DNA of 35,123 nucleotides, from NCBI GenBank assembly GCA_016284035.1, contig JAEEOC010000005.1, positions 1-35,123 on the forward strand, written 5' to 3'. Source of the DNA: Dehalococcoidales bacterium. GTDB taxonomy: Bacteria > Chloroflexota > Dehalococcoidia > Dehalococcoidales > UBA1222. Shown here piece by piece: positions 156 to 23,979 of this stretch (positions within the stretch are counted from its first letter, which is position 1; the number at the start of each line of letters is the position of its first letter). Both the position numbers and the translations under genes were made by a program. The notes beneath the pieces are model-generated. The model was not told where the DNA came from. It was given only the letters and a program-made list of their open reading frames with translations, and ran no database searches.

Positions 156-581
156 TCAATTATTAGTTCGGCGCTTCATACGTTGTTCCCGGTTCTTTTC
201 TTCGGAATCGAACAGCGTCACTGCCAGATCAGTCAGTTCTTTGCCCCATAGTTCACCCGTTTTTTGTACCTCTGCCCATGGACAGAGGGCGGCATAGTCT
301 TCATCGAGTTCGATATCATATGAACCATTGCGGTCGCTGACGCTTTTATACAAGTGTCTGCCCGTGCCGATCAACTCATGGGCGCCTCGGCGGTCCAGAC
401 GTTCAGTTTTAAGACGGCTGTAGGTGTCCTTGCCGATCTCATATAGATCGTAGTATCCGGCTACATAAGATTCTGCGGTGTAGAGTTCTCTTTTTTTGTC
501 GTGACAGGCTTTCCAGCCGTCACCCTCTACAAATTCCAGCTGTTCTTCTGTGTCTTGTGTCATCTTAGGTTTTCTTGGCAT
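156..581 (-). CDS. Hypothetical protein (141 aa)
   Basis: Protein-like ORF starting 14 nt after the ispG stop on the same strand; no motif recognised. Confidence 0.7.
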   Translation of the reverse strand: MPRKPKMTQDTEEQLEFVEGDGWKACHDKKRELYTAESYVAGYYDLYEIGKDTYSRLKTERLDRRGAHELIGTGRHLYKSVSDRNGSYDIELDEDYAALCPWAEVQKTGELWGKELTDLAVTLFDSEEKNREQRMKRRTNN

Positions 582-595
582 AATGGATCCCCGTT

Positions 596-1639
596 CTAGA
601 GATCTTCTATCTCCTTGAGGATACGGGGAATGATCTCATCTTCGGGGACATTACCGATGGTCTCTCCCTTCTTGAAGATGAGTCCGCAATTCTTTCCGCA
701 GGCGACGCCGACATCGGCATCTCTTGCTTCGCCCGGACCGTTCACGGCACATCCCATGACGGCGACTTTGATTGGCTTTTTGATGTCTTTCAGAGCTTCT
801 TCCATGTCGTGAGCCAGCTTGAAGACATCAGCCTGTGTCCTTCCGCAGGTGGGACAGCTGATGAGCTTGGGACCGTTGTCCCGTAGTCCCAGAGATCTAA
901 GTATCTCGAGTCCTGCTCTGACTTCTTCCACTGGGTCGGCAGTTAAGGACACTCTGATGGTGTCTCCGATACCTTCATCCAGAAGTATCCCCAGTCCCAC
1001 CGAGCTCCTGATGACACCGCAGTAGGAAGTCCCTGCTTCGGTGATCCCCAGATGCAGAGGATAGGGGATGAGTTTGGCTATCTTCTCGTATGCCCTGACA
1101 GTAGTCGGGACATCGGATGCTTTCAATGATACTTTTATGAGCCCGAAATCCAGGTCTTCCAGGATTCGTACATGGCGCATGGCGGCTTCCACCATGCGGT
1201 CGGGAAGCGGCATGCTCTCATCCAGATCCTTGGGGAGAGAGCCGGCATTGACGCCGATCCTGATGGGGATGTTTCTTTCTTTAGCGGCTTTTACGACGGC
1301 TTCGGTGCGTTCGCGTCCGCCGATATTGCCGGGATTCAGTCTGAGGGCATCTACTCCGCCTTTGATGGCGGTGAGGGCCAGTCGGTAATCGAAGTGGATA
1401 TCGGCAACGAGCGGGATACGGATCTGTTTTCTGATATCGGCAAGAGCTTCAGCGGCCTGTTCATCGGGTACCGCAAGACGGATGATCTCGCATCCGGCTT
1501 CTTCCAGTTCCCTGATGCTTCGGACAGTCGCTTTGATGTCGCGGGTATCGGTCTTGGTCATGGACTGTACGGTGATTGGTGCATCACCGCCGACAAGAAC
1601 GTCACCGATATGTAGCTGAATGCTCTTCCTGCGTGTCAT
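596..1639 (-). CDS. ispG: (E)-4-hydroxy-3-methylbut-2-enyl-diphosphate synthase
   Basis: VQSMT, ADIHFD, RLNPGNIG, RIGVNAGSL, HLGITEAG, GIGDTIRVSL and 4Fe-4S ligands CPTCGR...MGCAVNGPGE. Confidence 0.97.
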   Translation of the reverse strand: MTRRKSIQLHIGDVLVGGDAPITVQSMTKTDTRDIKATVRSIRELEEAGCEIIRLAVPDEQAAEALADIRKQIRIPLVADIHFDYRLALTAIKGGVDALRLNPGNIGGRERTEAVVKAAKERNIPIRIGVNAGSLPKDLDESMPLPDRMVEAAMRHVRILEDLDFGLIKVSLKASDVPTTVRAYEKIAKLIPYPLHLGITEAGTSYCGVIRSSVGLGILLDEGIGDTIRVSLTADPVEEVRAGLEILRSLGLRDNGPKLISCPTCGRTQADVFKLAHDMEEALKDIKKPIKVAVMGCAVNGPGEARDADVGVACGKNCGLIFKKGETIGNVPEDEIIPRILKEIEDL

Positions 1640-12546: not shown

Positions 12547-14397
12547 TTATTTGCTGAACTGGCTGTTGTAAAGGTTGGCATAGAAGCCGTTTTTAGCCAG
12601 TAATTCCTCATGATTTCCCTGTTCGATTATGTCACCATTGTCGATGACGAGGATGAGATCGGCATTGCGGATGGTGGACAGTCTGTGGGCGATGATGAAT
12701 GATGTCCTGCCTTTGAGGAGCTTATCGATAGCTTCCTGGATCAGGACCTCTGTTCGGGTATCCACGGAACTGGTAGCTTCGTCCAGGATGAGGACCTTGG
12801 GATCGGCTAAGATGGCGCGGGCGATGGTTATGAGCTGCTTCTGACCCTGAGACAGATTGCTGGAATCTTCATCGAGTTCCTGCTGATATCCTTTGGGAAG
12901 AGCGCTGATGAAGTGATCGGCCTGGGCGGTCTTGGCGGCTTCGATGACTTCTTCATCGGTGGCATCGAGACGTCCGTAACGGATGTTCTCCATGATGGTG
13001 CCGCTGAAGAGCCAGGTATCCTGTAAGACCATTCCGAAGTAGTTCCTCACTTCATGTCGGTCGAAACCTGCGATATCGTGTCCGTCGAGTAAGATCTCGC
13101 CGCCGTTCAGGTCATAGAACCGCATGAGCAGTTTGACCAGTGTGGTCTTGCCGGCACCGGTGGGCCCGACGATGGCGACCATCTGGCCGGGTTCGGCTTT
13201 GGCGGAGAAGTCTTTGATGATGGTCTTCTCGGGATTGTATCCGAACTTAACATGTCTGAATTCCACTTCGCCTTTGATGTCGATATCCGAAAGTGACAGC
13301 AGTTTTTCGGCAGCGGTCTCTTCGTCTGCATCAAGGATTCCGAAGACACGTTCGGATGCGGCGGCCATACGCTGCAGTGTGGATGAGATGTTGGATATCT
13401 CAGTGATGGGGTGGCTGAAGTTCCTGACGTACATCATGAAGGCCTGGATATCGCCGATGGTGATGGCCCCGGATGCGGCGCGGATTGCACCGACGATACA
13501 GACTGCGACATATCCCAGATTGCCGATGAAGTTGTTGGACGGGTAGAGGAGACCGGACAGGAACTCGGCCTTGAACGAATGTTCGCGGAGGATCTGGTTG
13601 TCTTTTTCAAATTCATCATGGACCTTGTCCTGGAGATTGAAAGATGTCACGACGGAATTAGCGCTGAGGTCTTCTTCAACATGTCCGTTGACCTTTCCCA
13701 GATAGTTCTGGTTGTTCTTGAAGTGTTTCTGGGAGAGCTTGACCAGGATCATGATATTGACGAATGAGAGCGGGGTGATGAGGATGACGACGAGAGCCAT
13801 CTGCCAGTTCATGAGGAACATCATCACGGTTATACCGACGAGTGTGACCGTAGATGATACGATGCGGATGAGACTCTGGCTGAGGCTTGCTTCGATGGTG
13901 TCGATATCGTTGGTGATGATGGAAAGCACGTTGCCCTGACTTGCCTGTGAGAGGAAGCTCAGAGGAAGCTTGTTGATCTTCTTCATGACCTGGGTACGGA
14001 TATTGAAGGCGAACTGTGTCGAGATATTGGACATGAGGATCGCCTGGATTCCGCCGAAGATGGCGCTGATGACATAGAGTCCCAGAAGTCCCAGGAGGAC
14101 CTTTCCGATGTATCCGTAATCCATATTGGCGGGAAGACCTTTGATGATGTTCTTCACCCCTTCGGCCAGTTCGTCCGTGGCAAGCGCCATGATGCTGGGA
14201 CCGGCGACAGAGAATACCACCGATACGATCGTCAGCAGGAAGACGAGGAATATCTGGAACTTGAACGGAGCCAGCCATTTAAGAAGACGTTTGGTCTCTT
14301 TCTTGACGCTGGCATTCGTCTTGAAAGTATGCATATTGTTGATAGTGTTCCTGGTGGGAGGACCACTCTTACCCATTCTGGTTATTGAAGGAGGCAT
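12547..14397 (-). CDS. Heterodimeric ABC exporter subunit (TM288-like), TMD + NBD
   Basis: GPTGAGKTT, degenerate signature LSQGQ, intact LILDEATS and IAHR; start placed at ATG 14397 (TGATG overlap), track alternative 14406. Confidence 0.92.
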   Translation of the reverse strand: MPPSITRMGKSGPPTRNTINNMHTFKTNASVKKETKRLLKWLAPFKFQIFLVFLLTIVSVVFSVAGPSIMALATDELAEGVKNIIKGLPANMDYGYIGKVLLGLLGLYVISAIFGGIQAILMSNISTQFAFNIRTQVMKKINKLPLSFLSQASQGNVLSIITNDIDTIEASLSQSLIRIVSSTVTLVGITVMMFLMNWQMALVVILITPLSFVNIMILVKLSQKHFKNNQNYLGKVNGHVEEDLSANSVVTSFNLQDKVHDEFEKDNQILREHSFKAEFLSGLLYPSNNFIGNLGYVAVCIVGAIRAASGAITIGDIQAFMMYVRNFSHPITEISNISSTLQRMAAASERVFGILDADEETAAEKLLSLSDIDIKGEVEFRHVKFGYNPEKTIIKDFSAKAEPGQMVAIVGPTGAGKTTLVKLLMRFYDLNGGEILLDGHDIAGFDRHEVRNYFGMVLQDTWLFSGTIMENIRYGRLDATDEEVIEAAKTAQADHFISALPKGYQQELDEDSSNLSQGQKQLITIARAILADPKVLILDEATSSVDTRTEVLIQEAIDKLLKGRTSFIIAHRLSTIRNADLILVIDNGDIIEQGNHEELLAKNGFYANLYNSQFSK

Positions 14398-16538
14398 CAG
14401 TCCCACTCTCCTTTCGAGAACTGAGACTCGGTGATCTCACGGTAGGTCGGGCAGTTCTCAAGCAGTTCTGAATGCTTTCCCATGCCGACGATCTTTCCTT
14501 CATCGAGGACGATGATCTTGTCGGCATTCATGATGGTGCTGATCCTCTGAGCAACGACGATCATGGTAAGGTCTTTATAATTCTCTGCGATGGCTTTGCG
14601 CAGTGCGGCATCGGTCTTGACGTCCAGTGCCGAATAACTGTCATCGAAGATACAGATGGGTGCGCCTTTGATGAGGGCTCGGGCGATGGCAAGTCGCTGT
14701 CTCTGACCGCCGCTGACGCTGGTTCCGCCCTGACTTACTTCGGTGTCGAGACCATGTTCGGACTCCATGACGAAGTCCTTGGCCTGAGCGATCTCAAGTA
14801 TCCGGAGTATCTCTTCATCAGTGGCATCTGCTTTTCCGACTAACATATTGGATCTGAAGGTCCCCTGGAACAGTATGCTCTGCTGGGGGACGAATCCGAT
14901 GTTTTCGCGGAGATCGTGCAGTGTGATATCGCGGATGTCGATGCCGTCGATCTCGACGGAGCCGGAATTGGTGTCGTAAAGACGCATGATGAGGTTGACC
15001 AGAGTGGTCTTGCCGGCACCGGTGGAACCGATGATGGCGGTAGTTTTGCCGGGTTCGGCGGTGAAACTGATATCAGACAGAGCGTCAAAATTTGAATCTG
15101 AATATCGGAAAGTCACGTTCTTGAATTCGATCTTACCGGTTGCTCTTCCAATCTGTACAGGACTCTCTGGATCTTTGATCGAAGGTTCTGTGGTGAGGAC
15201 TTCTTCGATACGTCGGATCGAGATGAGTGCTCGCGGGACCATGACGAACATCGTTGCCACGATCATGAAGGACATCACGACGTGCATCGCATACTGCATA
15301 TAGGCCAGAAGGTCTCCCACGCCCATCTCAGATGATGCGATGAGGTCTTTGCCCAGCCAGATGAGGAGCAGTGCCGCCACATTCATGAGGATGGTCATGG
15401 CGGGTCCCATGAAAGCCATGGTCCTCTGGGTGAAGCGGTTGGTATTCTTGAGATCGTTGCTGGTCTTATCAAAATTGTCTTCAGCAAACTTTTCATTGCC
15501 GAAAGCTCGGATGACCAGTGTACCTTTGAGGAATTCACGGCTCAGCTGGTTGACGCGGTCGACCAAAGACTGCAGTTTTTTGAATTTCGGCATGACGATG
15601 GCGCTGAGGATGCCCATGATGGCAAGAAGTGCCACCAGTGTCACGCCAGGGATCCAGCTCAGTTTGATGCTGGTCGTAGCCGCCATGATGAATGAGCCTA
15701 TGGACATGACGAAGGCGAATATGAATAATCGAAGCACCATGATGATGAGAGAAAGGGTCTGTGAGATATCGTTGGTGCTTCTTGTTATGAGTGATGCAAC
15801 AGGCATCTTGTCGAATTCTTTGTTTGAGAATTTGATGTATTTCCTGAAGAGAGCCGAACGCATATTGGTCGCAAAGCCGGTGGCGGTCTTCACGGCACAG
15901 TAGCCGACCGTGACGTTGAAGAGCAGTACAACGAAGAGATAGACGATCATTAATAACGATCGTTTGATCATATAATCCATCTGGATCTTGTGGAGATCCA
16001 ACCCCAGGTCTTCTGCGAATCCTTTGGAGAAAGTCACGCAGATCTCAGCGCCGTTGCCGGTCAGTGTATATGTCTTTTGGGCTTCATCGATATATCTGCC
16101 GATGGAACCGTCAGCCACCATGGCATCGATCTCTGGCGTGTGTCCGTAAAACCAGTTAAGGGAGAAGGAATCGTCTTCATCCGATATGTCTCTGTAATAT
16201 GCGAGAGCTGCCATACATGAAGTGATGTATATCTCATCCAGTTCTTTGGATGCTGCGTCTTCGGAAAGGATCCAGTGACCGCTGTATGCATCTTCATAGC
16301 TGTTTTTGAAGGTTTCGGCATCTTCGTCTGTCATGAACTTTCCGAGAGTATCGATACCTTCGCGGGTGATGTCTGAAGGTGCTTTTTCCTCGAAACCGCC
16401 GTACTGGATGCCGACGTTCACGAGGTCGCTCATGATGTTCGGCAGTTTCAGTTCGCCATAAGCCCTCACGACCTGACAGCAGAGACAGATCACGATGAAA
16501 ACTAGGAACGGTTTGAGATACTTGATTACGGTCTTCAT
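14397..16538 (-). CDS. Heterodimeric ABC exporter subunit (TM287-like) with large insertion after TM1
   Basis: GSTGAGKTT, VSGGQRQR, degenerate Walker B CIFDDS and switch VAQR; long hydrophilic insert between the first two TM segments. Confidence 0.92.
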   Translation of the reverse strand: MKTVIKYLKPFLVFIVICLCCQVVRAYGELKLPNIMSDLVNVGIQYGGFEEKAPSDITREGIDTLGKFMTDEDAETFKNSYEDAYSGHWILSEDAASKELDEIYITSCMAALAYYRDISDEDDSFSLNWFYGHTPEIDAMVADGSIGRYIDEAQKTYTLTGNGAEICVTFSKGFAEDLGLDLHKIQMDYMIKRSLLMIVYLFVVLLFNVTVGYCAVKTATGFATNMRSALFRKYIKFSNKEFDKMPVASLITRSTNDISQTLSLIIMVLRLFIFAFVMSIGSFIMAATTSIKLSWIPGVTLVALLAIMGILSAIVMPKFKKLQSLVDRVNQLSREFLKGTLVIRAFGNEKFAEDNFDKTSNDLKNTNRFTQRTMAFMGPAMTILMNVAALLLIWLGKDLIASSEMGVGDLLAYMQYAMHVVMSFMIVATMFVMVPRALISIRRIEEVLTTEPSIKDPESPVQIGRATGKIEFKNVTFRYSDSNFDALSDISFTAEPGKTTAIIGSTGAGKTTLVNLIMRLYDTNSGSVEIDGIDIRDITLHDLRENIGFVPQQSILFQGTFRSNMLVGKADATDEEILRILEIAQAKDFVMESEHGLDTEVSQGGTSVSGGQRQRLAIARALIKGAPICIFDDSYSALDVKTDAALRKAIAENYKDLTMIVVAQRISTIMNADKIIVLDEGKIVGMGKHSELLENCPTYREITESQFSKGEWD

Positions 16539-16563
16539 TTATACAGAAGTGATTATAGATTAT

Positions 16564-17799
16564 TTAAGACCGTATGTCTTTACGGTTTGGTGTAGGTGTC
16601 ATTTTTTCAGAAAAAGCGTAATAGTCATTGACCAGACTCTTATACCCAAGAGCCTTGAGATCTTCGTAGCGTGCATTGAAACGGGATTTTTTCCTTGTGC
16701 CGGAATACAGGAAACGGATGCAGTCCTGGGCATAGAGATCGATGGCATGCAAACTTTCTGTAGTGTTGATCACGGAGAAGAACCAATAACTCCAGGTCAG
16801 CTCGTTATCACCGGCATTCTCCATGAGTTTCCGGTTGAATACTCTGATGAATGCCCTGGCGGCTCTCTCCCCGTCTTCATCGTGGCGGTCGCTCCAGCGC
16901 CGGAGGGCCCGGGCTTTCCTGCGCATCTTCTTCTTGAGTTTCATCAGTGTCACGGGAGCGATATCGATGACACCGTCCTTTTCGCAGAATCCCAGGAAGG
17001 TCCATCCTTCATCCGGTGTCGAGAATAACTCTTTGTCCGGATTAACTGAGAGACCTTTGGCAGCCAGAAGCTCTTTTATCTTGGCGGCATAGGATTCAGT
17101 TTCTTCTCTGGTTTTTCCGAAGACGATGATGTCATCTGAATATCTGGCGTAGGGGATCCTTGAAGATTCGAACCATTCATCCATGTCTTTCAGATAGAGA
17201 TTGGCGTAGAAAGCTGCCAGAGGCGTACCTGCCATGATGCCTTTTTCTTCGCAGATGATCTTTCCGCGGTCGGAGACTTCCTCTTTTTTCAGCAGTGCCG
17301 ACAGAAACTCATATAACGGAGCATCGTCCGAAAGTGTTTCCTTCAGGATCGGAAGAAATCTTTCGATGGGTATTGAATTGAAGTAGTTGCTGATATCGAC
17401 TTTATAGGAATACATCCCGCGTATCCCGGGGATGCCGGTAAGTCTCCGTATGGCGTCCTTGGCGGTCTTGCCGGGACGGAAAGAATAGAGATTAGCGGAG
17501 AATATCCCGTCGTACTTCCTTAATAACAGATATGTAAGGAGCTTCAGGACCGTCGTTTCGTCCTTGGGATAGATGTAGACGATACGTTTCTTTTTGGTGT
17601 CGATCTTGCTGATGACGGCTCTTCTCGGAAGCGGGAACGAAGCGGCATCGGACGTCTCATCGCAGACGGGAAGGTATCTTTCATTGTCGATGAACGATCT
17701 GAGCTCTTTGGTATACTGTTTGGGACAGACCAAAGACGTCTTATATTCGTAAAATGCTTCCCAGCGGGCGGGATCTTTAAGCTCTGCGAGCAGGGTCAT
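16564..17799 (-). CDS. Reverse transcriptase, group II-like lineage (YSDD), with maturase-like thumb and no endonuclease domain
   Basis: RT motifs in order: ISK..KKKRIVYI, YSFRPGKTAKDAI, KVDISNYFNSI, KGIMAGTPLAAFYANLYL, YARYSDDIIVF, GLSVNPDK, WTFLGF; thumb-like WSYWFF...LHAIDLY...LKALGYKSL; AGAAAGG RBS. Confidence 0.93.
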   Translation of the reverse strand: MTLLAELKDPARWEAFYEYKTSLVCPKQYTKELRSFIDNERYLPVCDETSDAASFPLPRRAVISKIDTKKKRIVYIYPKDETTVLKLLTYLLLRKYDGIFSANLYSFRPGKTAKDAIRRLTGIPGIRGMYSYKVDISNYFNSIPIERFLPILKETLSDDAPLYEFLSALLKKEEVSDRGKIICEEKGIMAGTPLAAFYANLYLKDMDEWFESSRIPYARYSDDIIVFGKTREETESYAAKIKELLAAKGLSVNPDKELFSTPDEGWTFLGFCEKDGVIDIAPVTLMKLKKKMRRKARALRRWSDRHDEDGERAARAFIRVFNRKLMENAGDNELTWSYWFFSVINTTESLHAIDLYAQDCIRFLYSGTRKKSRFNARYEDLKALGYKSLVNDYYAFSEKMTPTPNRKDIRS

Positions 17800-17823
17800 G
17801 CAGCTACCTTTCTAAAAAAAATA

Positions 17824-17957
17824 AAGGCAGGATGAGAAATCATTAAAGTCCGGAATGTTCCGGAGTGTACCAGACCGTACACGAACAACTGCCTGCGAAG
17901 TTGTTTTTGCGTTCGTGCCGGGCCCGCCGCAGGCGCTAAGCGTTCTCATTCTGCCTT
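17824..17957 (-). ncRNA. Predicted structured RNA directly upstream of the RT (~134 nt)
   Basis: 15-nt terminal inverted repeat with 14/15 match (17957-17943 / 17838-17824); hairpins at 17849-17864, 17865-17882 and 17884-17905; 7-bp loop pairing 17891-17897 with 17928-17934; U-tract at 17823-17814. Expression not shown. Confidence 0.7.
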
Positions 17958-17972
17958 GCAGAAAAGCCGATG

Positions 17973-18530
17973 TTAACCTTCCAGTGCTTTTCGAGTCCTG
18001 TCGATCACATAGGATTTGGTGTTCCACCAGCCATCTACGTCAGTATAGTAGCGCAGGTAGGGGATACCTGCATCGATGGTATCTCTGCGGAGCTTCTTGG
18101 CGCCGGACTTCTTCTTGAGGAGTTCGACCACGAGTGCTTTCCTGCCGAGAGAATAGAATGTGAAGAGATATCCTTCATATTCGGTATTGAATCCCGCTTC
18201 GATGGAATACTTACCGGAGAAGTTCTCGTCAAAGATCTTCTTGAAGTACTCATGTGGTTTGCCGTTGAAGTTGAACTGGTTTTCTTCATCGGGCATCTCT
18301 TCGCCCCAGGATACGCCGGACTTAGGTCGGTCGTCGTCGTAACTGTCGTTCTTCTTTTCTTCGACTTTGAACATATCCTTCAAAGGATCGCTGGCTTCTG
18401 CAGGTTTGGCTGAAGCTTCATTCTTTTTCACTTCGATGCCGGCATCCTTCATTGCTTTCTCAAACTCATTGAACTGCTGCTTGAGTTCATCCAGTTTGGC
18501 ATCGCCGAAAAGTTTGTCGAATAGACCCAT
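17973..18530 (-). CDS. Hypothetical RT-linked protein (185 aa): amphipathic N-terminus, charged linker, possible DUF559/DUF2726-like C-terminal fold
   Basis: Start moved from 18605 to ATG 18530 (GGAGG RBS), giving MGLFDKLFG; C-terminal ALVVELL...RRDTIDAGIPYLRYY. Fold call is inference. Confidence 0.8.
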   Translation of the reverse strand: MGLFDKLFGDAKLDELKQQFNEFEKAMKDAGIEVKKNEASAKPAEASDPLKDMFKVEEKKNDSYDDDRPKSGVSWGEEMPDEENQFNFNGKPHEYFKKIFDENFSGKYSIEAGFNTEYEGYLFTFYSLGRKALVVELLKKKSGAKKLRRDTIDAGIPYLRYYTDVDGWWNTKSYVIDRTRKALEG

Positions 18531-18595
18531 ATCATCCTCCTGATAGACCGTGTCCATGAGAGGTGTTAGCGGAAGGACGTGATTGTTTTGCCAGT

Positions 18596-18624
18596 ATTCT
18601 ATCACCCGCTATAGTGCATAACAA
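18596..18624 (-). promoter_or_regulatory. Sigma70-type promoter for the orf185-ncRNA-RT unit (TTGTTA-17-TAGAAT, extended TG)
   Basis: -35 at 18624-18619, -10 at 18601-18596, 17-nt spacer ending TGA. Confidence 0.55.
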
Positions 18625-18711
18625 TCACTACATTATTGGTATTACTTTAATATCTATGCCAAAAATGGTATCTTTTATTCTGTTCATCAAGCATAGATTG
18701 GAATAGTTATC

Positions 18712-19638
18712 ATGTATTACGACAATATCCTTCAGGCAGTCGGCCATACACCAATGGTCAAACTTCAGAGAATGGTCTCGCCCGAGATGGCTGATGTCAT
18801 CGTCAAATACGAGGGCCTCAATGTCGGCGGTTCGATCAAGACCAGAACTGCGCTGAACATGATCGAAGAGGCTGAACGCAAAGGTCTCATCAAAAAGGAT
18901 ACTGTCATCGTTGAGCCTACCAGCGGCAATCAGGGCATCGGTCTGGCATTGGTGGGTGCTGTCAAAGGATACCGCACTGTCATCGTCATGCCTGATTCCG
19001 TCAGCAGCGAACGAAAGTTCCTCATGGAACATTATGGTGCAGAGGTCATCCTCGTACATGATGACGGCAACATCGGCGAATGCATGGAGAACTGTCTCAA
19101 GACAGCTATGAAGATGGCAGAAGAAGATCCCAAGGTCTATGTACCTCAGCAGTTTTCGAATCCTGACAATCCTCTTGCTCATAAGCATCACACTGCTCTT
19201 GAGATCATGGAACAGATCGCAGGTCCCATCCATGGTTTCTGTGCCGGTGTAGGTACCGGCGGTACTCTTTCCGGTATCGGTGAGGTCTTGAAGGCACAGT
19301 ATCCCGACATCGAGATCTGGGCGGTTGAACCTGAGAATGCTGCGATCCTGGCCGGCGGAACTGTCGGAACTCATCTCCAGATGGGTATCGGCGACGGTAT
19401 CATTCCCGACAATCTCAATCAGAACATCTATTCCAGTGTCTATGTCGTAACCGATGAAGAGGCTATCCAGACTGCCAAGGATCTGGCCAAGAAAGAGGGT
19501 CTCATGTGCGGCATTTCCAGCGGAACTAATGTCGCGGCAGCACTCAGTCTGGCTAAAAAGTTGGGTCCCGGCAAGACTGTTGTTACAATATTACCTGATA
19601 CTGCAGAACGATATTTCAGTACGCCCTTGTTCAAATAG
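18712..19638 (+). CDS. cysK: Cysteine synthase (O-acetylserine thiol-lyase family, PLP)
   Basis: GGSIKTR PLP lysine, EPTSGNQG, GVGTGGT, GISSG, PDTAERYFST. Confidence 0.9.
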   Translation: MYYDNILQAVGHTPMVKLQRMVSPEMADVIVKYEGLNVGGSIKTRTALNMIEEAERKGLIKKDTVIVEPTSGNQGIGLALVGAVKGYRTVIVMPDSVSSERKFLMEHYGAEVILVHDDGNIGECMENCLKTAMKMAEEDPKVYVPQQFSNPDNPLAHKHHTALEIMEQIAGPIHGFCAGVGTGGTLSGIGEVLKAQYPDIEIWAVEPENAAILAGGTVGTHLQMGIGDGIIPDNLNQNIYSSVYVVTDEEAIQTAKDLAKKEGLMCGISSGTNVAAALSLAKKLGPGKTVVTILPDTAERYFSTPLFK

Positions 19639-19650
19639 GGCGTGTATCGA

Positions 19651-19726
19651 GCCAGCGTAGCTCAGTTGGTAGAGCAACGGTTTCGTAAACCGTCGGTCAA
19701 GAGTTCAAATCTCTTCGCTGGCTCCA
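19651..19726 (+). tRNA. tRNA-Thr (anticodon CGT)
   Basis: 76-nt cloverleaf: acceptor GCCAGCG/CGCTGGC, anticodon arm ACGGT-TTCGTAA-ACCGT, T arm AAGAG-TTCAAAT-CTCTT, encoded CCA. Confidence 0.97.
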
Positions 19727-19819
19727 TTTTTTTTAGAATTCTTTTTTTCTTTACCTAATTTTTACATTCAGTCGTCTAGAATGTTGGTGAAAGCTTGAAA
19801 AAAACTCTATCCCCTTTAC

Positions 19820-19870
19820 AAAGAAAAAAGGTCTGCGGAATCGGAAGTAACGCAGACCTTTTTCTTTTTT
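19820..19870. terminator. Bidirectional intrinsic terminator
   Basis: AAAAAGGTCTGCG...CGCAGACCTTTTT flanked by A and T runs, between the convergent tRNA and ORF 19885-20262. Confidence 0.8.
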
Positions 19871-19884
19871 CAGTTGTTTAACAG

Positions 19885-20262
19885 CTAGTCTTTTTTCTGT
19901 TTCTCGACGGCAAGTTCGTCAGAGATCCTCTTTGCCATCGCGACGTAGCAACCGACCATGGTGTTGCTTCCCCACTGTTTGGCGGTTTCTTCATCGACTT
20001 CATCGTCGGCTTCGATACCGAACAGTTCGGCCAGTTTTTCGTCGGTGGTGGTATTGTAGGGGCAGTCTTTGGCGATGCACTGATGTCCGGCATCGCAGGT
20101 CCCATCCTCATCGAAATATGTTTCCTGGTTGAAGAGTTTCTTTAAGGGATCGGCGCCGAAAGTCATATATCTGACTTTGTTGCAGAAACCGCAGATAGCG
20201 ATGGAGAAGTTCTGTCCGGACGGCAACTGTAGATCGCGCCATTCTGTGTCGAAAGATTTCAT
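19885..20262 (-). CDS. Hypothetical cysteine-rich protein (125 aa)
   Basis: GGGGG RBS and downstream terminator; CGFC, C-x5-C-x4-C and a further Cys. Confidence 0.8.
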   Translation of the reverse strand: MKSFDTEWRDLQLPSGQNFSIAICGFCNKVRYMTFGADPLKKLFNQETYFDEDGTCDAGHQCIAKDCPYNTTTDEKLAELFGIEADDEVDEETAKQWGSNTMVGCYVAMAKRISDELAVEKQKKD

Positions 20263-20289
20263 TGATAACCCCCTTGTTAATCTTCCCTG

Positions 20290-20306
20290 AATGCTATACT
20301 AGCATT
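20290..20306. promoter_or_regulatory. 7-3-7 palindrome carrying overlapping extended -10 elements for divergent genes
   Basis: AATGCTA-TAC-TAGCATT reads TGcTATACT on + and TGcTAGTAT on -. Confidence 0.5.
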
Positions 20307-20340
20307 TAATATTTCAATCAACAAATGATAGGGGCATTCC

Positions 20341-20820
20341 ATGACTGAAATGAGATTTCGATTTGCTGAAAAGAAAGATGCAGGTCTCGTCCTGGATTTC
20401 ATAAAGGAGCTTGCGGCATACGAGAAGATGGATGATGAGGTCGTCAATACCAAAGAGATGATCGAGGACTGGGTCTTCGACCGTCATTATGCCGAAGTCC
20501 TCTTTGTCATGGAAGATGATAAGGAAGCCGGATTTGCCCTCTTCTTCTATAACTATTCCACTTTTGTCGGACGTGCCGGTCTCTGGCTCGAAGATCTTTT
20601 TGTAAGACCTGATTATCGCGGAAAAGGTTATGGCAAGGCTTTGCTGGAAAAGCTTGCTTCCATTGCAGTAGAGCGCGGATACGGACGTATGGAATGGAAC
20701 TGTCTGGACTGGAACAAGCCCAGTATCGATTTCTATCTCTCAGAGGGTGCGGTCCCGATGGACATCTGGACCACTTACAGACTTACGGGCGATGCCCTTA
20801 AAAAAGCTGGGAACGGTTAG
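20341..20820 (+). CDS. GNAT N-acetyltransferase (diamine/spermidine acetyltransferase-like)
   Basis: FIKELAAYEK, YSTFVG, LEDLFVRPDYRGKGYGKAL, LDWNKPSIDFY. Confidence 0.9.
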   Translation: MTEMRFRFAEKKDAGLVLDFIKELAAYEKMDDEVVNTKEMIEDWVFDRHYAEVLFVMEDDKEAGFALFFYNYSTFVGRAGLWLEDLFVRPDYRGKGYGKALLEKLASIAVERGYGRMEWNCLDWNKPSIDFYLSEGAVPMDIWTTYRLTGDALKKAGNG

Positions 20821-21592
20821 CCGGTTTTCCCAGTAAGTAACCGCCTGAATACTGGACCAGCTCGATCTCACTGTAGATCTTACCGAGTTTCTCTTTGACT
20901 TCTTCGGCTGATGCCGTGCGCATATCCAGTTCATCGATGAGCAGACCGTCATCCACCAGGAAGATCCTGTCGCTGTACTGGATGGCGAAATTGGGGTCAT
21001 GGAGAGTGATTAGACAGGCTTTCTGTTCGCTCTTCACCAGTTCCCTGATACGGTTCAGTACGCGGTGTCTCCTCAGAAAATCGAGGGCGCTGTCGGGTTC
21101 ATCCATGAGCATCACAGGGGTATCCTGTACCAGCGTCCTGGCCAGGATGATCATCTGTTTCTGGCCCTGGCTCAGCTGATTGTACATGCGTTCCTCAAAG
21201 TCCGATACGTTCAGTTTGGCGAGTGCTTCACGTGCCTTGATGCGGTGTTCTTCTCTGGGGGATTCGAGGAGCCCCAGATAAGGATTGGCGCCCATGAGGA
21301 GGACGTCCATCACAGATTTTCCGTGATAGGGACTGCTGACCTGAGGAATGAATGAGATATAGCGGGCCCTTTCATGTTCATTCATCCCGGCGGTATCTTT
21401 GCCTGAGATGATGCATCTGCCTGATGCTTCATTGAGACCGCAGATGCCGCGGAGAAGCGTGGTCTTGCCGCTTCCGTTGAGCCCTAGCAGTGTGCACAGT
21501 TCGCCGCCTGCGATCGAAAAGCTGATGCCTTTCACGATCTCAGTCTTACCGTAGCTGACATGGATGTCCTTGATAGTAAGCAGTTCTTCCAT
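20798..21592 (-). CDS. ABC importer ATPase (FecE/BtuD-like)
   Basis: GLNGSGKTT, LSQGQKQ, MLMDEP, TLHDPN; overlaps the GNAT 3' end by 23 nt. Confidence 0.92.
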   Translation of the reverse strand: MEELLTIKDIHVSYGKTEIVKGISFSIAGGELCTLLGLNGSGKTTLLRGICGLNEASGRCIISGKDTAGMNEHERARYISFIPQVSSPYHGKSVMDVLLMGANPYLGLLESPREEHRIKAREALAKLNVSDFEERMYNQLSQGQKQMIILARTLVQDTPVMLMDEPDSALDFLRRHRVLNRIRELVKSEQKACLITLHDPNFAIQYSDRIFLVDDGLLIDELDMRTASAEEVKEKLGKIYSEIELVQYSGGYLLGKPANRSQLF

Positions 21593-22608
21593 CAGTTGAG
21601 TCCCTTCTGTTTTACAAGGAAGTAGACCAGGACGGGAACGCCGATCATGGTCGTCAGGATACTGATAGGTATCTCAGCGGTATAGATCGACCTCGCCAGG
21701 ACATCGCCGATGATGAGTATCAGCCCGCCGATGAGAGCTGCCATCACACAGGTAGTGAAATTGTTGCGTTTCATGAGGAGCCTTGCGATATGGGGTGCCA
21801 CGAGACCGATGAAAGTGATGAGACCGGATATCGATATCACGGATGCCACCATGAGAGTGGAGAGGGCCAGGATAACGGTCCTTACGTAAGTAAGCCTGAC
21901 TCCCAGCATCTTGCTCTCATCTTCATTCATGGAGAGCAGCCCGATCTGGTTTCTCAGAAGGATGATGCCGATGAAAGAGATCAGGAAGACGGGCAGGATC
22001 GAGAGAAGCTTATCCAGCGTGACATTGGCAAAACTGCCCATGGTCCAGTATTCGATGGCGGCCAATTCGCCCGCGGGATCGGCATAATACTTCAGGAGCA
22101 TGATGAGTGCCCGCGTGGTGTGGGTCAGTACGATACCGGCCAGGATATAGGTCGCTGTGGTATTGGACGGGGTGGCTTTGACCAGAAGGAGCACCAGCAT
22201 TACGACGACGATGCCGCCGATGAAGGCGCCCAGCTGGATGGATAATGCAGTGCCGCCCAGGAAGACGATGGCGATAGCGCTGCCGAGATTGGCGCCCGGT
22301 GCGACGCCGATGATGTCAGGTGATGCCAGATGATTCTTGAAGATGGTCTGGTAGATGCTGCCGGCAAGTCCTAAGCCGATGCCGGCGATGAAGCTTGCAA
22401 GAACACGAGGAACACGCAGAGTATAAAATACCCTGCGTGTTATCTCTTTTACTTCGCCGCCTGTAAGGATCGCGAAGATGTCTTTCAGTGTTATCGGATA
22501 CTGTCCGATACAGATGGCGATTATGATTGCCGCTATGATCGCGATGCTTATCCCTGCAAAGAGCAGGACGGTCTTATTCTTTTTTGCTTCGTGAAGAAGT
22601 GCTGCCAT
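21592..22608 (-). CDS. FecCD/BtuC-family ABC permease
   Basis: LRVPRV, QTIFKNHLASPDIIG, ITFIGLVAPHIAR. Confidence 0.93.
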   Translation of the reverse strand: MAALLHEAKKNKTVLLFAGISIAIIAAIIIAICIGQYPITLKDIFAILTGGEVKEITRRVFYTLRVPRVLASFIAGIGLGLAGSIYQTIFKNHLASPDIIGVAPGANLGSAIAIVFLGGTALSIQLGAFIGGIVVVMLVLLLVKATPSNTTATYILAGIVLTHTTRALIMLLKYYADPAGELAAIEYWTMGSFANVTLDKLLSILPVFLISFIGIILLRNQIGLLSMNEDESKMLGVRLTYVRTVILALSTLMVASVISISGLITFIGLVAPHIARLLMKRNNFTTCVMAALIGGLILIIGDVLARSIYTAEIPISILTTMIGVPVLVYFLVKQKGLN

Positions 22609-23794: not shown

Positions 23795-23908
23795 AATGAT
23801 CTTCAGGGCAGGGTGTGATTCCCCACCGGCGGTATAACCCGCGAGCCGCAAGGCATGATTCGGTGAGATTCCGAAGTCGACAGTAGAGTCTGGATGGAAG
23901 AAGATTTA
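23795..23908 (+). promoter_or_regulatory. FMN riboswitch (RFN element)
   Basis: ATCTTCAGGGCAGGGTG..ATTCCCCACCGGCGGT...CCCGCGAGC...GATTCCGAAGTCGACAGT..AGTCTGGATGGAAGAAGAT matches the RFN consensus; upstream of ribD. Confidence 0.95.
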
Positions 23909-23979
23909 TGGTAAGAATCTTTGTAAGTATGCGCTGGTATCTATGACCAGAGTTTTTTATTTATAAAAGATGTACGCAG

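Follow-up and report, generated by a model that had tools for sequence, protein, structure and literature searches.

The window analysed here is the whole 35,123-nucleotide stretch of contig JAEEOC010000005.1 from a Dehalococcoidales bacterium with a genome size of 1.32 Mb. At 16564..18624 of its minus strand three parts follow each other in the order partner open reading frame (ORF), structured RNA and reverse transcriptase (RT), and the layout given for them in an earlier note on this DNA (a 185-aa ORF, a 173-nt gap with a structured RNA at 17800..17972, and a 411-aa RT) proved exact in its coordinates. An ABC transporter gene begins 25 nt past the RT stop, and the neighbours of the locus in the window (ABC exporters, a PALP enzyme, GNAT, a FecCD transporter and tRNA) are of the housekeeping kind; PADLOC returned only generic ABC-ATPase matches in the window flanks and no defence island. 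The features of the locus are the following.

18596..18624, minus strand: candidate promoter, TTGTTA-17-TAGAAT with a TG-extended -10, upstream of the partner gene (consensus scan)
17973..18530, minus strand: partner protein, 185 aa (PADLOC RTasCOG2852)
17826..17955, minus strand: structured non-coding RNA (ncRNA) of ~130 nt, from the P0 5' strand to the P0 3' strand (Rfam, covariance model, covariation)
17943..17955, minus strand: P0 5' strand GGCAGAAUGAGAA, pairing with 17826..17838 (covariation, duplex test)
17934..17942, minus strand: small hairpin Pa, CGC-UUA-GCG (98.1% paired; changes one-sided only)
17928..17933, minus strand: pseudoknot 5' strand CCUGCG, pairing with CGCAGG of the P2b loop at 17892..17897 (98.1% of cells paired)
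17871..17926, minus strand: P1/P2/P2b stem of the RT-5 core with the conserved pseudoknot loop (Rfam consensus and covariation)
17849..17864, minus strand: P3 hairpin UCCGGA/UCCGGA (6/6 pairs with compensatory changes)
17839..17848, minus strand: single-stranded 3' tail CUUUAAUGAU between P3 and P0 (invariant or near-invariant columns)
17813..17825, minus strand: U-run immediately past the P0 3' strand, intrinsic-terminator-like (sequence)
16564..17799, minus strand: reverse transcriptase, 411 aa, UG26 group (PADLOC RT_UG26, Pfam RVT_1)

The minus-strand promoter proposed earlier is present as a consensus site, but 5 sites of this type were found in the region, compared with 3.1 +/- 1.7 in shuffled sequences, and it is therefore regarded as a plausible candidate only. 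Another promoter-like site at 17976..17948, whose -10 falls within the P0 5' strand, was judged to be due to chance, because a start there would sever the covarying P0 helix. RNA-library contigs from two studies (17870-18018 and 17893-18175, depth 2-4) span the partner stop into the RNA, which is a weak hint of transcription, with DNA carry-over possible; their depth cannot rank the genes, and uncovered stretches carry no information.

The RT is assigned to UG26, a group of the Class 2 UG/Abi enzymes, by its match to the PADLOC model RT_UG26 (E 3.1e-175, 580.7 bits), in which residues 1-398 align with profile positions 1-397 of 398. The runner-up PADLOC models are the generic RT (115.3 bits), then UG27 (99.1), UG17 (94.7) and UG4 (94), while the Drt9 model gives 72.1 bits and the Drt2 models 56-58 bits. 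In Pfam the protein matches RVT_1 alone (E 1.9e-20, residues 63-271) and no further known domain, and a catalytic core of this kind without additional known domains is what marks Class 2. By this profile match the enzyme falls in a catalogued group, and the earlier family label "group II-like" has to be given up. The alignment of 35 RT homologues contains 60 invariant columns, including Y217, R219, Y220-I224 and Y394, so that both the catalytic YSDD (residues 220-223, at 17142..17131) and a tyrosine near the C-terminus (Y394) are invariant. The ribosome-binding site of the RT gene is GAAAGG at 17807..17812.

The partner ORF opens with an ATG at 18530, which AGGAGG precedes by 5 nt, and ends with a stop at 17973..17975; this 185-aa start is favoured over the 194- and 210-aa options because the homologues begin alike, with the consensus MGLFSKLFG in the family alignment. 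The protein starts with the helix MGLFDKLFG, continues with a linker of low complexity and ends in a conserved domain at about residues 70-185. In PADLOC it matches RTasCOG2852 only (E 9.3e-52, profile positions 1-166 of 167), and Pfam gave no family, with no DUF559, Vsr or SLATT at E up to 1. The family profile found no match among PDB sequences, the best (E 2.6) being an unrelated ligase, and an Atlas feature search returned DUF559 at 0.85 only, which is a lead.

In the AF2 model of the partner (pLDDT 80 overall, 75-98 over C-domain blocks) the C-terminal domain shows a restriction-endonuclease-like alpha-beta-beta-beta-alpha-beta-alpha topology with a core pLDDT above 90. The best VIA-align comparisons are with Vsr-like structures, namely 3r3p_B (Z 7.3, rmsd 2.2, 79 aa), 3hrl_A (Z 6.8) and Vsr 1cw0_A (Z 6.2), every Z being below the value of 8 from which a likeness counts as clear, and Foldseek of the model against PDB gave nothing at E <= 1e-3. 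In the family alignment E136 of the third strand is the sole invariant acidic core residue, with no invariant Asp or His; its mapping onto the Vsr motif is tentative. The predicted model weakly suggests a relationship to the Vsr/DUF559 endonucleases. Complex prediction from the RT and partner alignments scored 0.00 and 0.02, where the mark is 0.32, and returned no verdict.

The gap between the two genes contains a full-length match to Rfam RT-5 (RF03026) at 17835..17938 on the minus strand (90.6 bits versus a gathering score of 45.7, model positions 1-104 of 104), which stops 35 nt short of the RT start codon, so the earlier claim of a structured RNA at this place is well founded. The 148-nt stretch has a folding energy of -52.9 kcal/mol (z = -4.0), and 0 of 200 shuffled sequences are equally stable. 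A covariance model of our own gives the RNA of the locus 147.6 bits; the covariation alignment was fitted to nested helices, and the pseudoknot was left out of the model. Across the 35 sequences 93.9% of cells are paired, as compared with 78.8% in shuffled sequences (0/500 reach the observed value) and 36-50% when the partners are slid, and compensatory changes occur in 31 of the 45 RNA base pairs.

The RNA extends beyond the Rfam model, whose 104 positions omit the covarying 13-bp P0 and the Pa hairpin and whose CS line from cmscan leaves unpaired both pseudoknot strands that are paired here. Twelve of the 13 P0 pairs show compensatory changes, with 95.4% of cells paired, and an alignment-free duplex test gave a mean of -21.4 kcal/mol for cognate strands versus -13.5 kcal/mol for non-cognate ones. 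The Pa hairpin is extended in some homologues (L013, L014, L015 and L032), and the 6-bp pseudoknot changes from C-G to U-A in 5 sequences and from U-A to C-G in 1. In the P1/P2/P2b helices, which include a variable asymmetric internal loop at 17903..17910, compensatory changes are found in 8/13 and 3/4 pairs, while in the 3' tail UUUAA is almost invariant. A single-sequence minimum free energy fold was rejected, as it turns the two pseudoknot strands into a nested helix in place of P1/P2; its GUGUAC/GUACAC hairpin was dropped after inspection by eye, the L026-L030 sequences not keeping it. The U-run after P0 is present in most homologues and was not called by a terminator scan that admits loops of 3-8 nt only.

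As for what the RNA may encode, no reading frame across it is open in all of the sequences, each sense frame being stop-free in 10-15 of 35. The 3' tail may be regarded as a candidate template region, and the variable internal loop as another candidate. In the homologue alignment no template was identifiable from sequence: of the A-B-A' patterns considered, GUAC...GUAC and UUU...UUU, neither is strictly conserved, and therefore neither allows a template to be assigned.

The linkage between RNA and RT holds across the family. In 34 of 36 homologous loci, whose RTs are 45-63% identical, an RT-5 RNA precedes the RT gene on the same strand, the two exceptions being L003, where only 118 nt of upstream sequence is available, and L036, an RT fragment; in an additional relative of the same genus (RT 42% identical) the RNA lies 26 nt upstream. 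A profile search detected the partner domain in 22/36 loci (20 strong matches and 2 weak ones, the latter bearing a Zn-ribbon N-terminus), always upstream of the RNA. Of the two neighbours that the earlier note proposed to look for beside homologues, the RNA is retained and the partner is variable, and from these frequencies RNA and RT constitute the core unit, while the partner would be an accessory or effector module and not an obligatory component. The distance from the RNA end to the RT start is 20-163 nt in 26/34 loci and 258-1365 nt, with other genes between, in the remaining 8/34.

The system occurs unevenly even among members of the genus and family and is rare in the class, a pattern shared with accessory genes: 1 of 30 related genomes has a full-length relative, and none of 150 further genomes drawn from the class yielded an RT-5 match. 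No UG26 member turned up in phage, viral-contig and plasmid collections, where all RT-domain matches stayed below 29% identity; the viral contigs were searched with exact peptide patterns, which detect close relatives only, and the plasmid-collection matches are annotated group II intron RTs (24-29% identity).

These results bear on what was known before. The identity of the parts as UG26 RT, RTasCOG2852 partner and RT-5 RNA is practically certain, and since every part is already in public catalogues the locus is a catalogued one, contrary to the earlier supposition that it was undescribed. In the Mestre et al. 2022 study (PMC9226505), as far as its available text goes, UG26 is placed in Class 2 UG/Abi and a COG2852-like protein is given beside 9/35 members, compared with the 22/36 loci detected here by profile search; both proteins match the models of this group, with no difference at the protein level. 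The same text gives ncRNAs for UG2, UG3+UG8, UG28 and UG27 and none for UG26. In the Weinberg et al. 2017 study (PMC5737381), according to the portion available, RT-5 is one of the RT-1 to RT-19 motifs, which might be parts of retrons or DGRs, and no report tying RT-5 to UG26 was found in the literature searched. New here are the linkage of RNA and RT, the optional nature of the partner and the extension of the RNA beyond its Rfam model.

The likeness to DRT systems proposed earlier is sound. In the accessible accounts of the characterised Class 2 UG RTs the ncRNA is the template for iterative cDNA synthesis. In DRT10 (UG17; bioRxiv 10.1101/2025.10.16.682844), according to the part of the preprint available, an ncRNA, a SLATT protein and an RT carry out protein-primed tandem-repeat synthesis yielding telomerase-like repeats; like the present locus it is a Class 2 UG system of three parts, and its ncRNA, similar in size at 137 nt, is a large stem bearing smaller stem-loops. 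It differs in RT group (UG17, 94.7 bits, versus UG26, 580.7 bits, for the RT studied here), in having SLATT in place of a protein with a Vsr fold by predicted model, and in the gene order RNA-SLATT-RT versus partner-RNA-RT; unlike in the DRT10 layout, the partner is dispensable here in about a third of loci.

DRT9 (UG28; PMC12483538), as described in the text at hand, consists of an ncRNA and an RT that makes poly-dA from a poly-U tract, primed by conserved C-terminal tyrosines. It shares with the present system a Class 2 UG RT, an upstream structured ncRNA and an accessory protein that is only occasional, and the UG26 RT also possesses a conserved C-terminal tyrosine (Y394); however, the DRT9 U tract is located in an internal loop, whereas the sole conserved U-run of RT-5 lies past P0 and is terminator-like. 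In DRT2 (UG2), in the accounts available, an ncRNA and an RT assemble the neo gene by rolling-circle reverse transcription. In both systems an ncRNA precedes the RT and a protein partner is not obligatory; RT-5 RNA, for its part, has no conserved stop-free frame, a finding that speaks against assembly of a gene from the entire RNA.

By analogy with these systems the best reading, held with moderate confidence, is that the locus encodes a Class 2 UG/Abi ribonucleoprotein (RNP) whose ncRNA scaffolds and templates cDNA synthesis. The RNA would be transcribed together with the upstream partner gene and would stop at the U-run or be partially read through; the RT would bind it as scaffold and template and produce cDNA, which would probably be repetitive and possibly protein-primed, as in DRT2, DRT9 and DRT10. 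Either this cDNA or its build-up once phage has infected the cell may then act as a signal or toxic agent, with the Vsr-fold partner as accessory or effector. What the sequence data establish for this locus is which parts it consists of, that RNA and RT are conserved together and how the RNA is structured; that the RT binds and copies the RNA, what product results and that the system serves in defence are what we infer.

Among the other explanations, a degenerate remnant of a group II intron, retron or DGR would be most doubtful. It is true that the best NCBIfam match of the RT is a group II intron RT model and that the plasmid-collection matches are annotated as enzymes of this type, but the TIGR04416 score is 104.8 bits versus a cut-off of 300 and the retron model NF038233 gives 48.6 versus 235, far from the value reached with UG26. 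Rfam scans of the window at gathering and E <= 10 thresholds detected no intron or retron RNA families and no ribozyme family, and only 25 nt follow the RT stop before the next gene. The repeat search of 13000-22000 found no TR/VR near-repeat pair beside the RT and no inverted repeats, the direct repeats being within or between the flanking ABC-transporter genes, plus weak 67-70% chance matches elsewhere, and so the earlier exclusion of all three element types was correct. It is improbable, too, that the RNA is a cis-acting leader or attenuator of RT expression, with P0 and the U-run as a conditional terminator, and not a template or RNP part. Such a device would be suited by a U-run directly after P0, an RT ribosome-binding site within ~15 nt of it and the short RNA-to-RT distance in 26/34 loci; against it, the RNA is fully conserved in the 8/34 loci where other genes intervene, its loops, pseudoknot and tail are conserved to the very high degree typical of an RNP, and every characterised Class 2 UG system, in the accounts available, uses the ncRNA as template. 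Leader and RNP roles are not mutually exclusive.

A less probable variant retains the same RT-ncRNA cDNA biochemistry and assigns it to a mobile element or to host physiology, as proposed for UG4/UG27. These two families are among the next-best PADLOC models of the RT (94 and 99 bits), and the available text of Mestre et al. 2022 (PMC9226505) gives them no defence enrichment and calls the prediction for UG26 inconclusive; the housekeeping flanks and the small host genome are also in line with such a role. On the other hand, its distribution in genus, family and class is that of accessory genes, phage, viral-contig and plasmid collections yielded no member, and the nearby Class 2 groups with experiments in the literature surveyed (UG2, UG17 and UG28) are reported in the accessible accounts to defend against phage.

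Within the preferred reading of a cDNA-producing ribonucleoprotein a more specific proposal can be made, though it is rather unlikely as it stands: UG26 and RT-5 together would represent a DRT type of a new sort, with an RNA that has the architecture of a minimal telomerase RNA. P0 would be the core-enclosing helix, accompanied by the pseudoknot and a short single-stranded template, which would run from the U-rich 3' tail at 17839..17848 into the first U's of P0 and be bounded on its 5' side by P3. Repeated copying, primed from the conserved C-terminal tyrosine, would generate a ~8-nt tandem repeat, and the Vsr-fold partner would bind or cut this product or couple it to cell arrest.

In summary, Class 2 UG/Abi RTs have each yielded a different and unexpected DNA product, and UG26 is among the groups still awaiting experiments, which makes it a good experimental candidate. 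With an RT that travels with RT-5, an RNA with P0 and a pseudoknot, and an optional partner of predicted nuclease fold, a database entry becomes a testable system.

The locus belongs to a catalogued family and is real, but it is not the undescribed three-part reverse transcriptase (RT) system that the earlier note had proposed, since the RT and the partner protein are end-to-end matches to the PADLOC models RT_UG26 (E 3.1e-175, 580.7 bits) and RTasCOG2852 (E 9.3e-52), respectively, and the RNA between them matches Rfam RF03026. The RT also matches Pfam RVT_1, while other PADLOC families reach at most 115 bits on it, and the group II intron RT, Drt2-5, retron and AbiA models of NCBIfam all stay far under their cut-offs; for the partner no Pfam family was found. 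In the consulted parts of Mestre et al. 2022 (PMC9226505) UG26 counts as a Class 2 UG/Abi group and as one of 16 groups with inconclusive defence prediction, a COG2852/YcjD-like cluster is co-located with 9 of 35 UG26 members, and ncRNAs are given for UG2, UG3+UG8, UG28 and UG27, not for UG26. The motifs RT-1 to RT-19 were introduced as lying near RT genes, their retron or DGR roles being speculation of the authors, as far as the consulted text goes (Weinberg et al. 2017, PMC5737381). The literature library that was searched holds no publication linking RT-5 RNA to UG26; supplementary drawings or tables may contain more.

When the open reading frames and the gap were re-derived from the window sequence, they agreed exactly with the coordinates of the earlier note. 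The promoter that it had placed upstream is present as a promoter-like site, but it is only a candidate because the region holds 5 such sites versus 3.1 +/- 1.7 expected.

Features of the locus and its surroundings in the window
18624..18596, minus strand: promoter-like site (consensus scan)
ATG at 18530, stop 17973..17975, minus strand: partner ORF, 185 aa, with AGGAGG at 18541..18536 before the ATG
17972..17800, minus strand: gap between partner ORF and RT ORF, 173 nt
17955..17943 pairing with 17838..17826, minus strand: closing helix P0, followed by a U-run, from the flanks of 35 RNAs
17835..17938, minus strand: Rfam RF03026 'RT-5 RNA', 90.6 bits versus gathering score 45.7, model positions 1-104
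17799 to 16564, minus strand: RT ORF, 411 aa, with GAAAGG before the start and YSDD at 17142..17131
23795-23909, plus strand: FMN riboswitch (RF00050, 110.8 bits)

An ABC exporter gene starts 25 nt past the RT stop. In public gene calls the partner starts 9 codons further upstream (194 aa); the length of 185 aa is preferred because 50 homologues share the start motif M-G-L-F/L-S/D-K-L.

When a single genome of each species was scanned for relatives of the RT, 36 loci with 45–63% identity came up, nearly all from Clostridia/Bacillota MAGs and most with rumen or gut in the record title. RT-5 RNA was detected at the gathering score in 34 of them, always on the same strand and upstream of the RT; the two misses are L003, where only 118 nt upstream of the RT are present, and L036, an RT fragment only. 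A same-genus RT relative, 42% identical, also has RT-5 RNA directly upstream. From RNA end to RT start there are 20–163 nt in 26 of the 34 loci and 258–1365 nt in the other 8, where genes are inserted between. The partner was found strongly by its family profile in 20 of the 36 loci and weakly in L024 and L034, with a zinc-ribbon N-terminus instead of the MGLFSKLFG helix, and wherever present it lies just upstream of the RNA. Since RT-5 is so constant and the partner less so, RNA and RT are the conserved unit and the partner is a frequent accessory.

Variants of the partner and genes inserted in homologous loci
L024:3827-4822, L034:4166-4780 and proteins P0228, P0206, P0225: partner C-terminal domain with zinc-ribbon N-terminus and long low-complexity linker
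Proteins P0121, P0125: tandem duplicates of the partner C-domain
L020, L021: lipoprotein-like ORF between RNA and RT
L023: two GNAT genes between RNA and RT
L026:4293-4973, L027:4396-5004, L028:4396-5004, L030:1275-1859: SAP_new25 + DUF6434 protein, ~200 aa, between RT-5 RNA and RT

The SAP_new25 + DUF6434 protein of this partner-less subgroup may be an alternative accessory. At L016:3754-4815 a RelA_SpoT-domain protein (PADLOC PDC-S33, E 2e-17) replaces the partner directly upstream of the RT-5 RNA.

The RNA exceeds the Rfam model in extent. A covariance model was built from P0, the small hairpin Pa and the Rfam helices, and on realignment all 35 sequences were full-length matches with 83–154 bits. 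Paired cells amounted to 93.9% in this alignment versus 78.8 +/- 0.6% in shuffles, 0 of 500 of which reached the observed value, and to 36–50% with slid controls. Compensatory changes were found in 12 of 13 pairs of P0, 6 of 6 of P3 and 8 of 13 of P1/P2. A 6-bp pseudoknot joins two conserved stretches, the 5' segment CCUGCG and the hairpin loop CGCAGG; its helix was absent from the covariance model used for alignment, and its cells are 98.1% paired, with C-G replaced by U-A in 5 sequences and the reverse change, U-A to C-G, in one. An alignment-free duplex control was added, since the nested helices had guided the alignment; in it, cognate 5'/3' flank duplexes averaged -21.4 kcal/mol versus -13.5 for non-cognate ones and the cognate 3' flank ranked first, ties included, in 21 of 35 loci. 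The window RNA folded as a single sequence gives z = -4.0, and none of the reading frames crosses the RNA uninterrupted in every sequence.

In the single-sequence MFE fold the conserved GUGUAC...GUACAC (window 17865-17882, minus strand) forms an alternative hairpin that competes with P1/P2; a conformational switch is possible on this predicted fold, and no covariation supporting the hairpin was seen by eye. Perfect TATAAT boxes precede the P0 5' strand by 9–20 nt in the partner-less L016, L026 and L035, which suggests an RNA start at about P0 in these loci.

The partner family is small: a search of 1.84 billion proteins gave 245 representatives at E <= 1e-3, and its 207 clusters in a word-indexed search are all unnamed or 'hypothetical'. 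None of the eight long proteins examined is an RT fusion. The AF2 model (pLDDT 80; C-domain blocks 75–98) has an alpha-beta-beta-beta-alpha-beta-alpha topology and gave no significant match in Foldseek. In VIA-align the I-Bth0305I catalytic domain was best (Z 7.3), together with NGO0050, a putative endonuclease-like protein of Neisseria (Z 6.8), and Vsr (Z 6.2), all under the clear level of Z 8; Atlas feature search gave DUF559 and DUF2726 at 0.85 as leads only. E136 is the sole invariant acidic residue of the core. By the model, the partner likely has a Vsr-like fold, with putative nuclease activity. The conserved motif MGLFSKLFG (residues 1-9, window 18504-18530, minus strand) is predicted to be helical and presumably resembles N-terminal amphipathic membrane-binding helices.

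The assembly of the genome comes to 1.32 Mb and is 92% complete; the window flanks carry transporters, a PALP enzyme, GNAT and tRNA; no defence island, integrase or phage gene adjoins the locus. Of 30 related genomes, 1 has a full-length relative, RT-5 is absent from all 150 other genomes in a sample of the class, and collections of viral contigs and of phage and plasmid records gave no UG26 member. Twenty public runs contain part of the stretch; their samples come from animal gut or rumen. Low-depth contigs in RNA libraries of three studies cover the partner gene and in two run past its stop into the RNA, which is a weak hint of co-transcription, DNA carry-over being possible.

A tRNA gene lies at window 19651-19723 (plus strand), and tRNA genes stand in the flanks of 7 of the 36 loci (L008, L010, L012, L013, L023, L028, L030), in L012 and L013 directly 3' of the RT; these genes are possible marks of insertion hot spots. 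The L005 flank also has an FMN riboswitch (455-598, minus strand), and Gut-1 RNA (RF01706) copies lie ~1 kb upstream of the RT-5 RNA at L027:3095-3290 and L028:2948-3511. A T-box leader at L001:4909-5144 starts ~80 nt past the RT stop, so that there too the system sits between housekeeping units.

In the consulted parts of the sources, the characterised Class 2 UG RTs all use the ncRNA as template for iterative reverse transcription: DRT2 by rolling-circle copying, DRT9 by copying a poly-U tract into poly-dA with C-terminal tyrosines as primer (PMC12483538), and DRT10, whose ncRNA has 137 nt and whose effector is a SLATT protein, by copying an A-B-A' template loop with a stem-loop as boundary into tandem repeats (bioRxiv 10.1101/2025.10.16.682844). 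By analogy, RT-5 RNA would be scaffold and template bound by the UG26 RT, giving a cDNA product, and the partner would be a downstream actor or regulator. The structure prediction for a joint RT-partner complex scored 0.00 and 0.02 against a mark of 0.32, which the tool reads neither as contact nor as its absence. Y394, an invariant tyrosine near the RT C-terminus, is compatible with protein priming; the template may lie in the conserved U-rich 3' tail, with P3 as its boundary, or in the variable internal loop of P2.

What is new here is the fixed pairing of RT-5 with UG26, the extended RNA architecture and the optional partner with its variants, which make the locus a sound experimental candidate of moderate interest.
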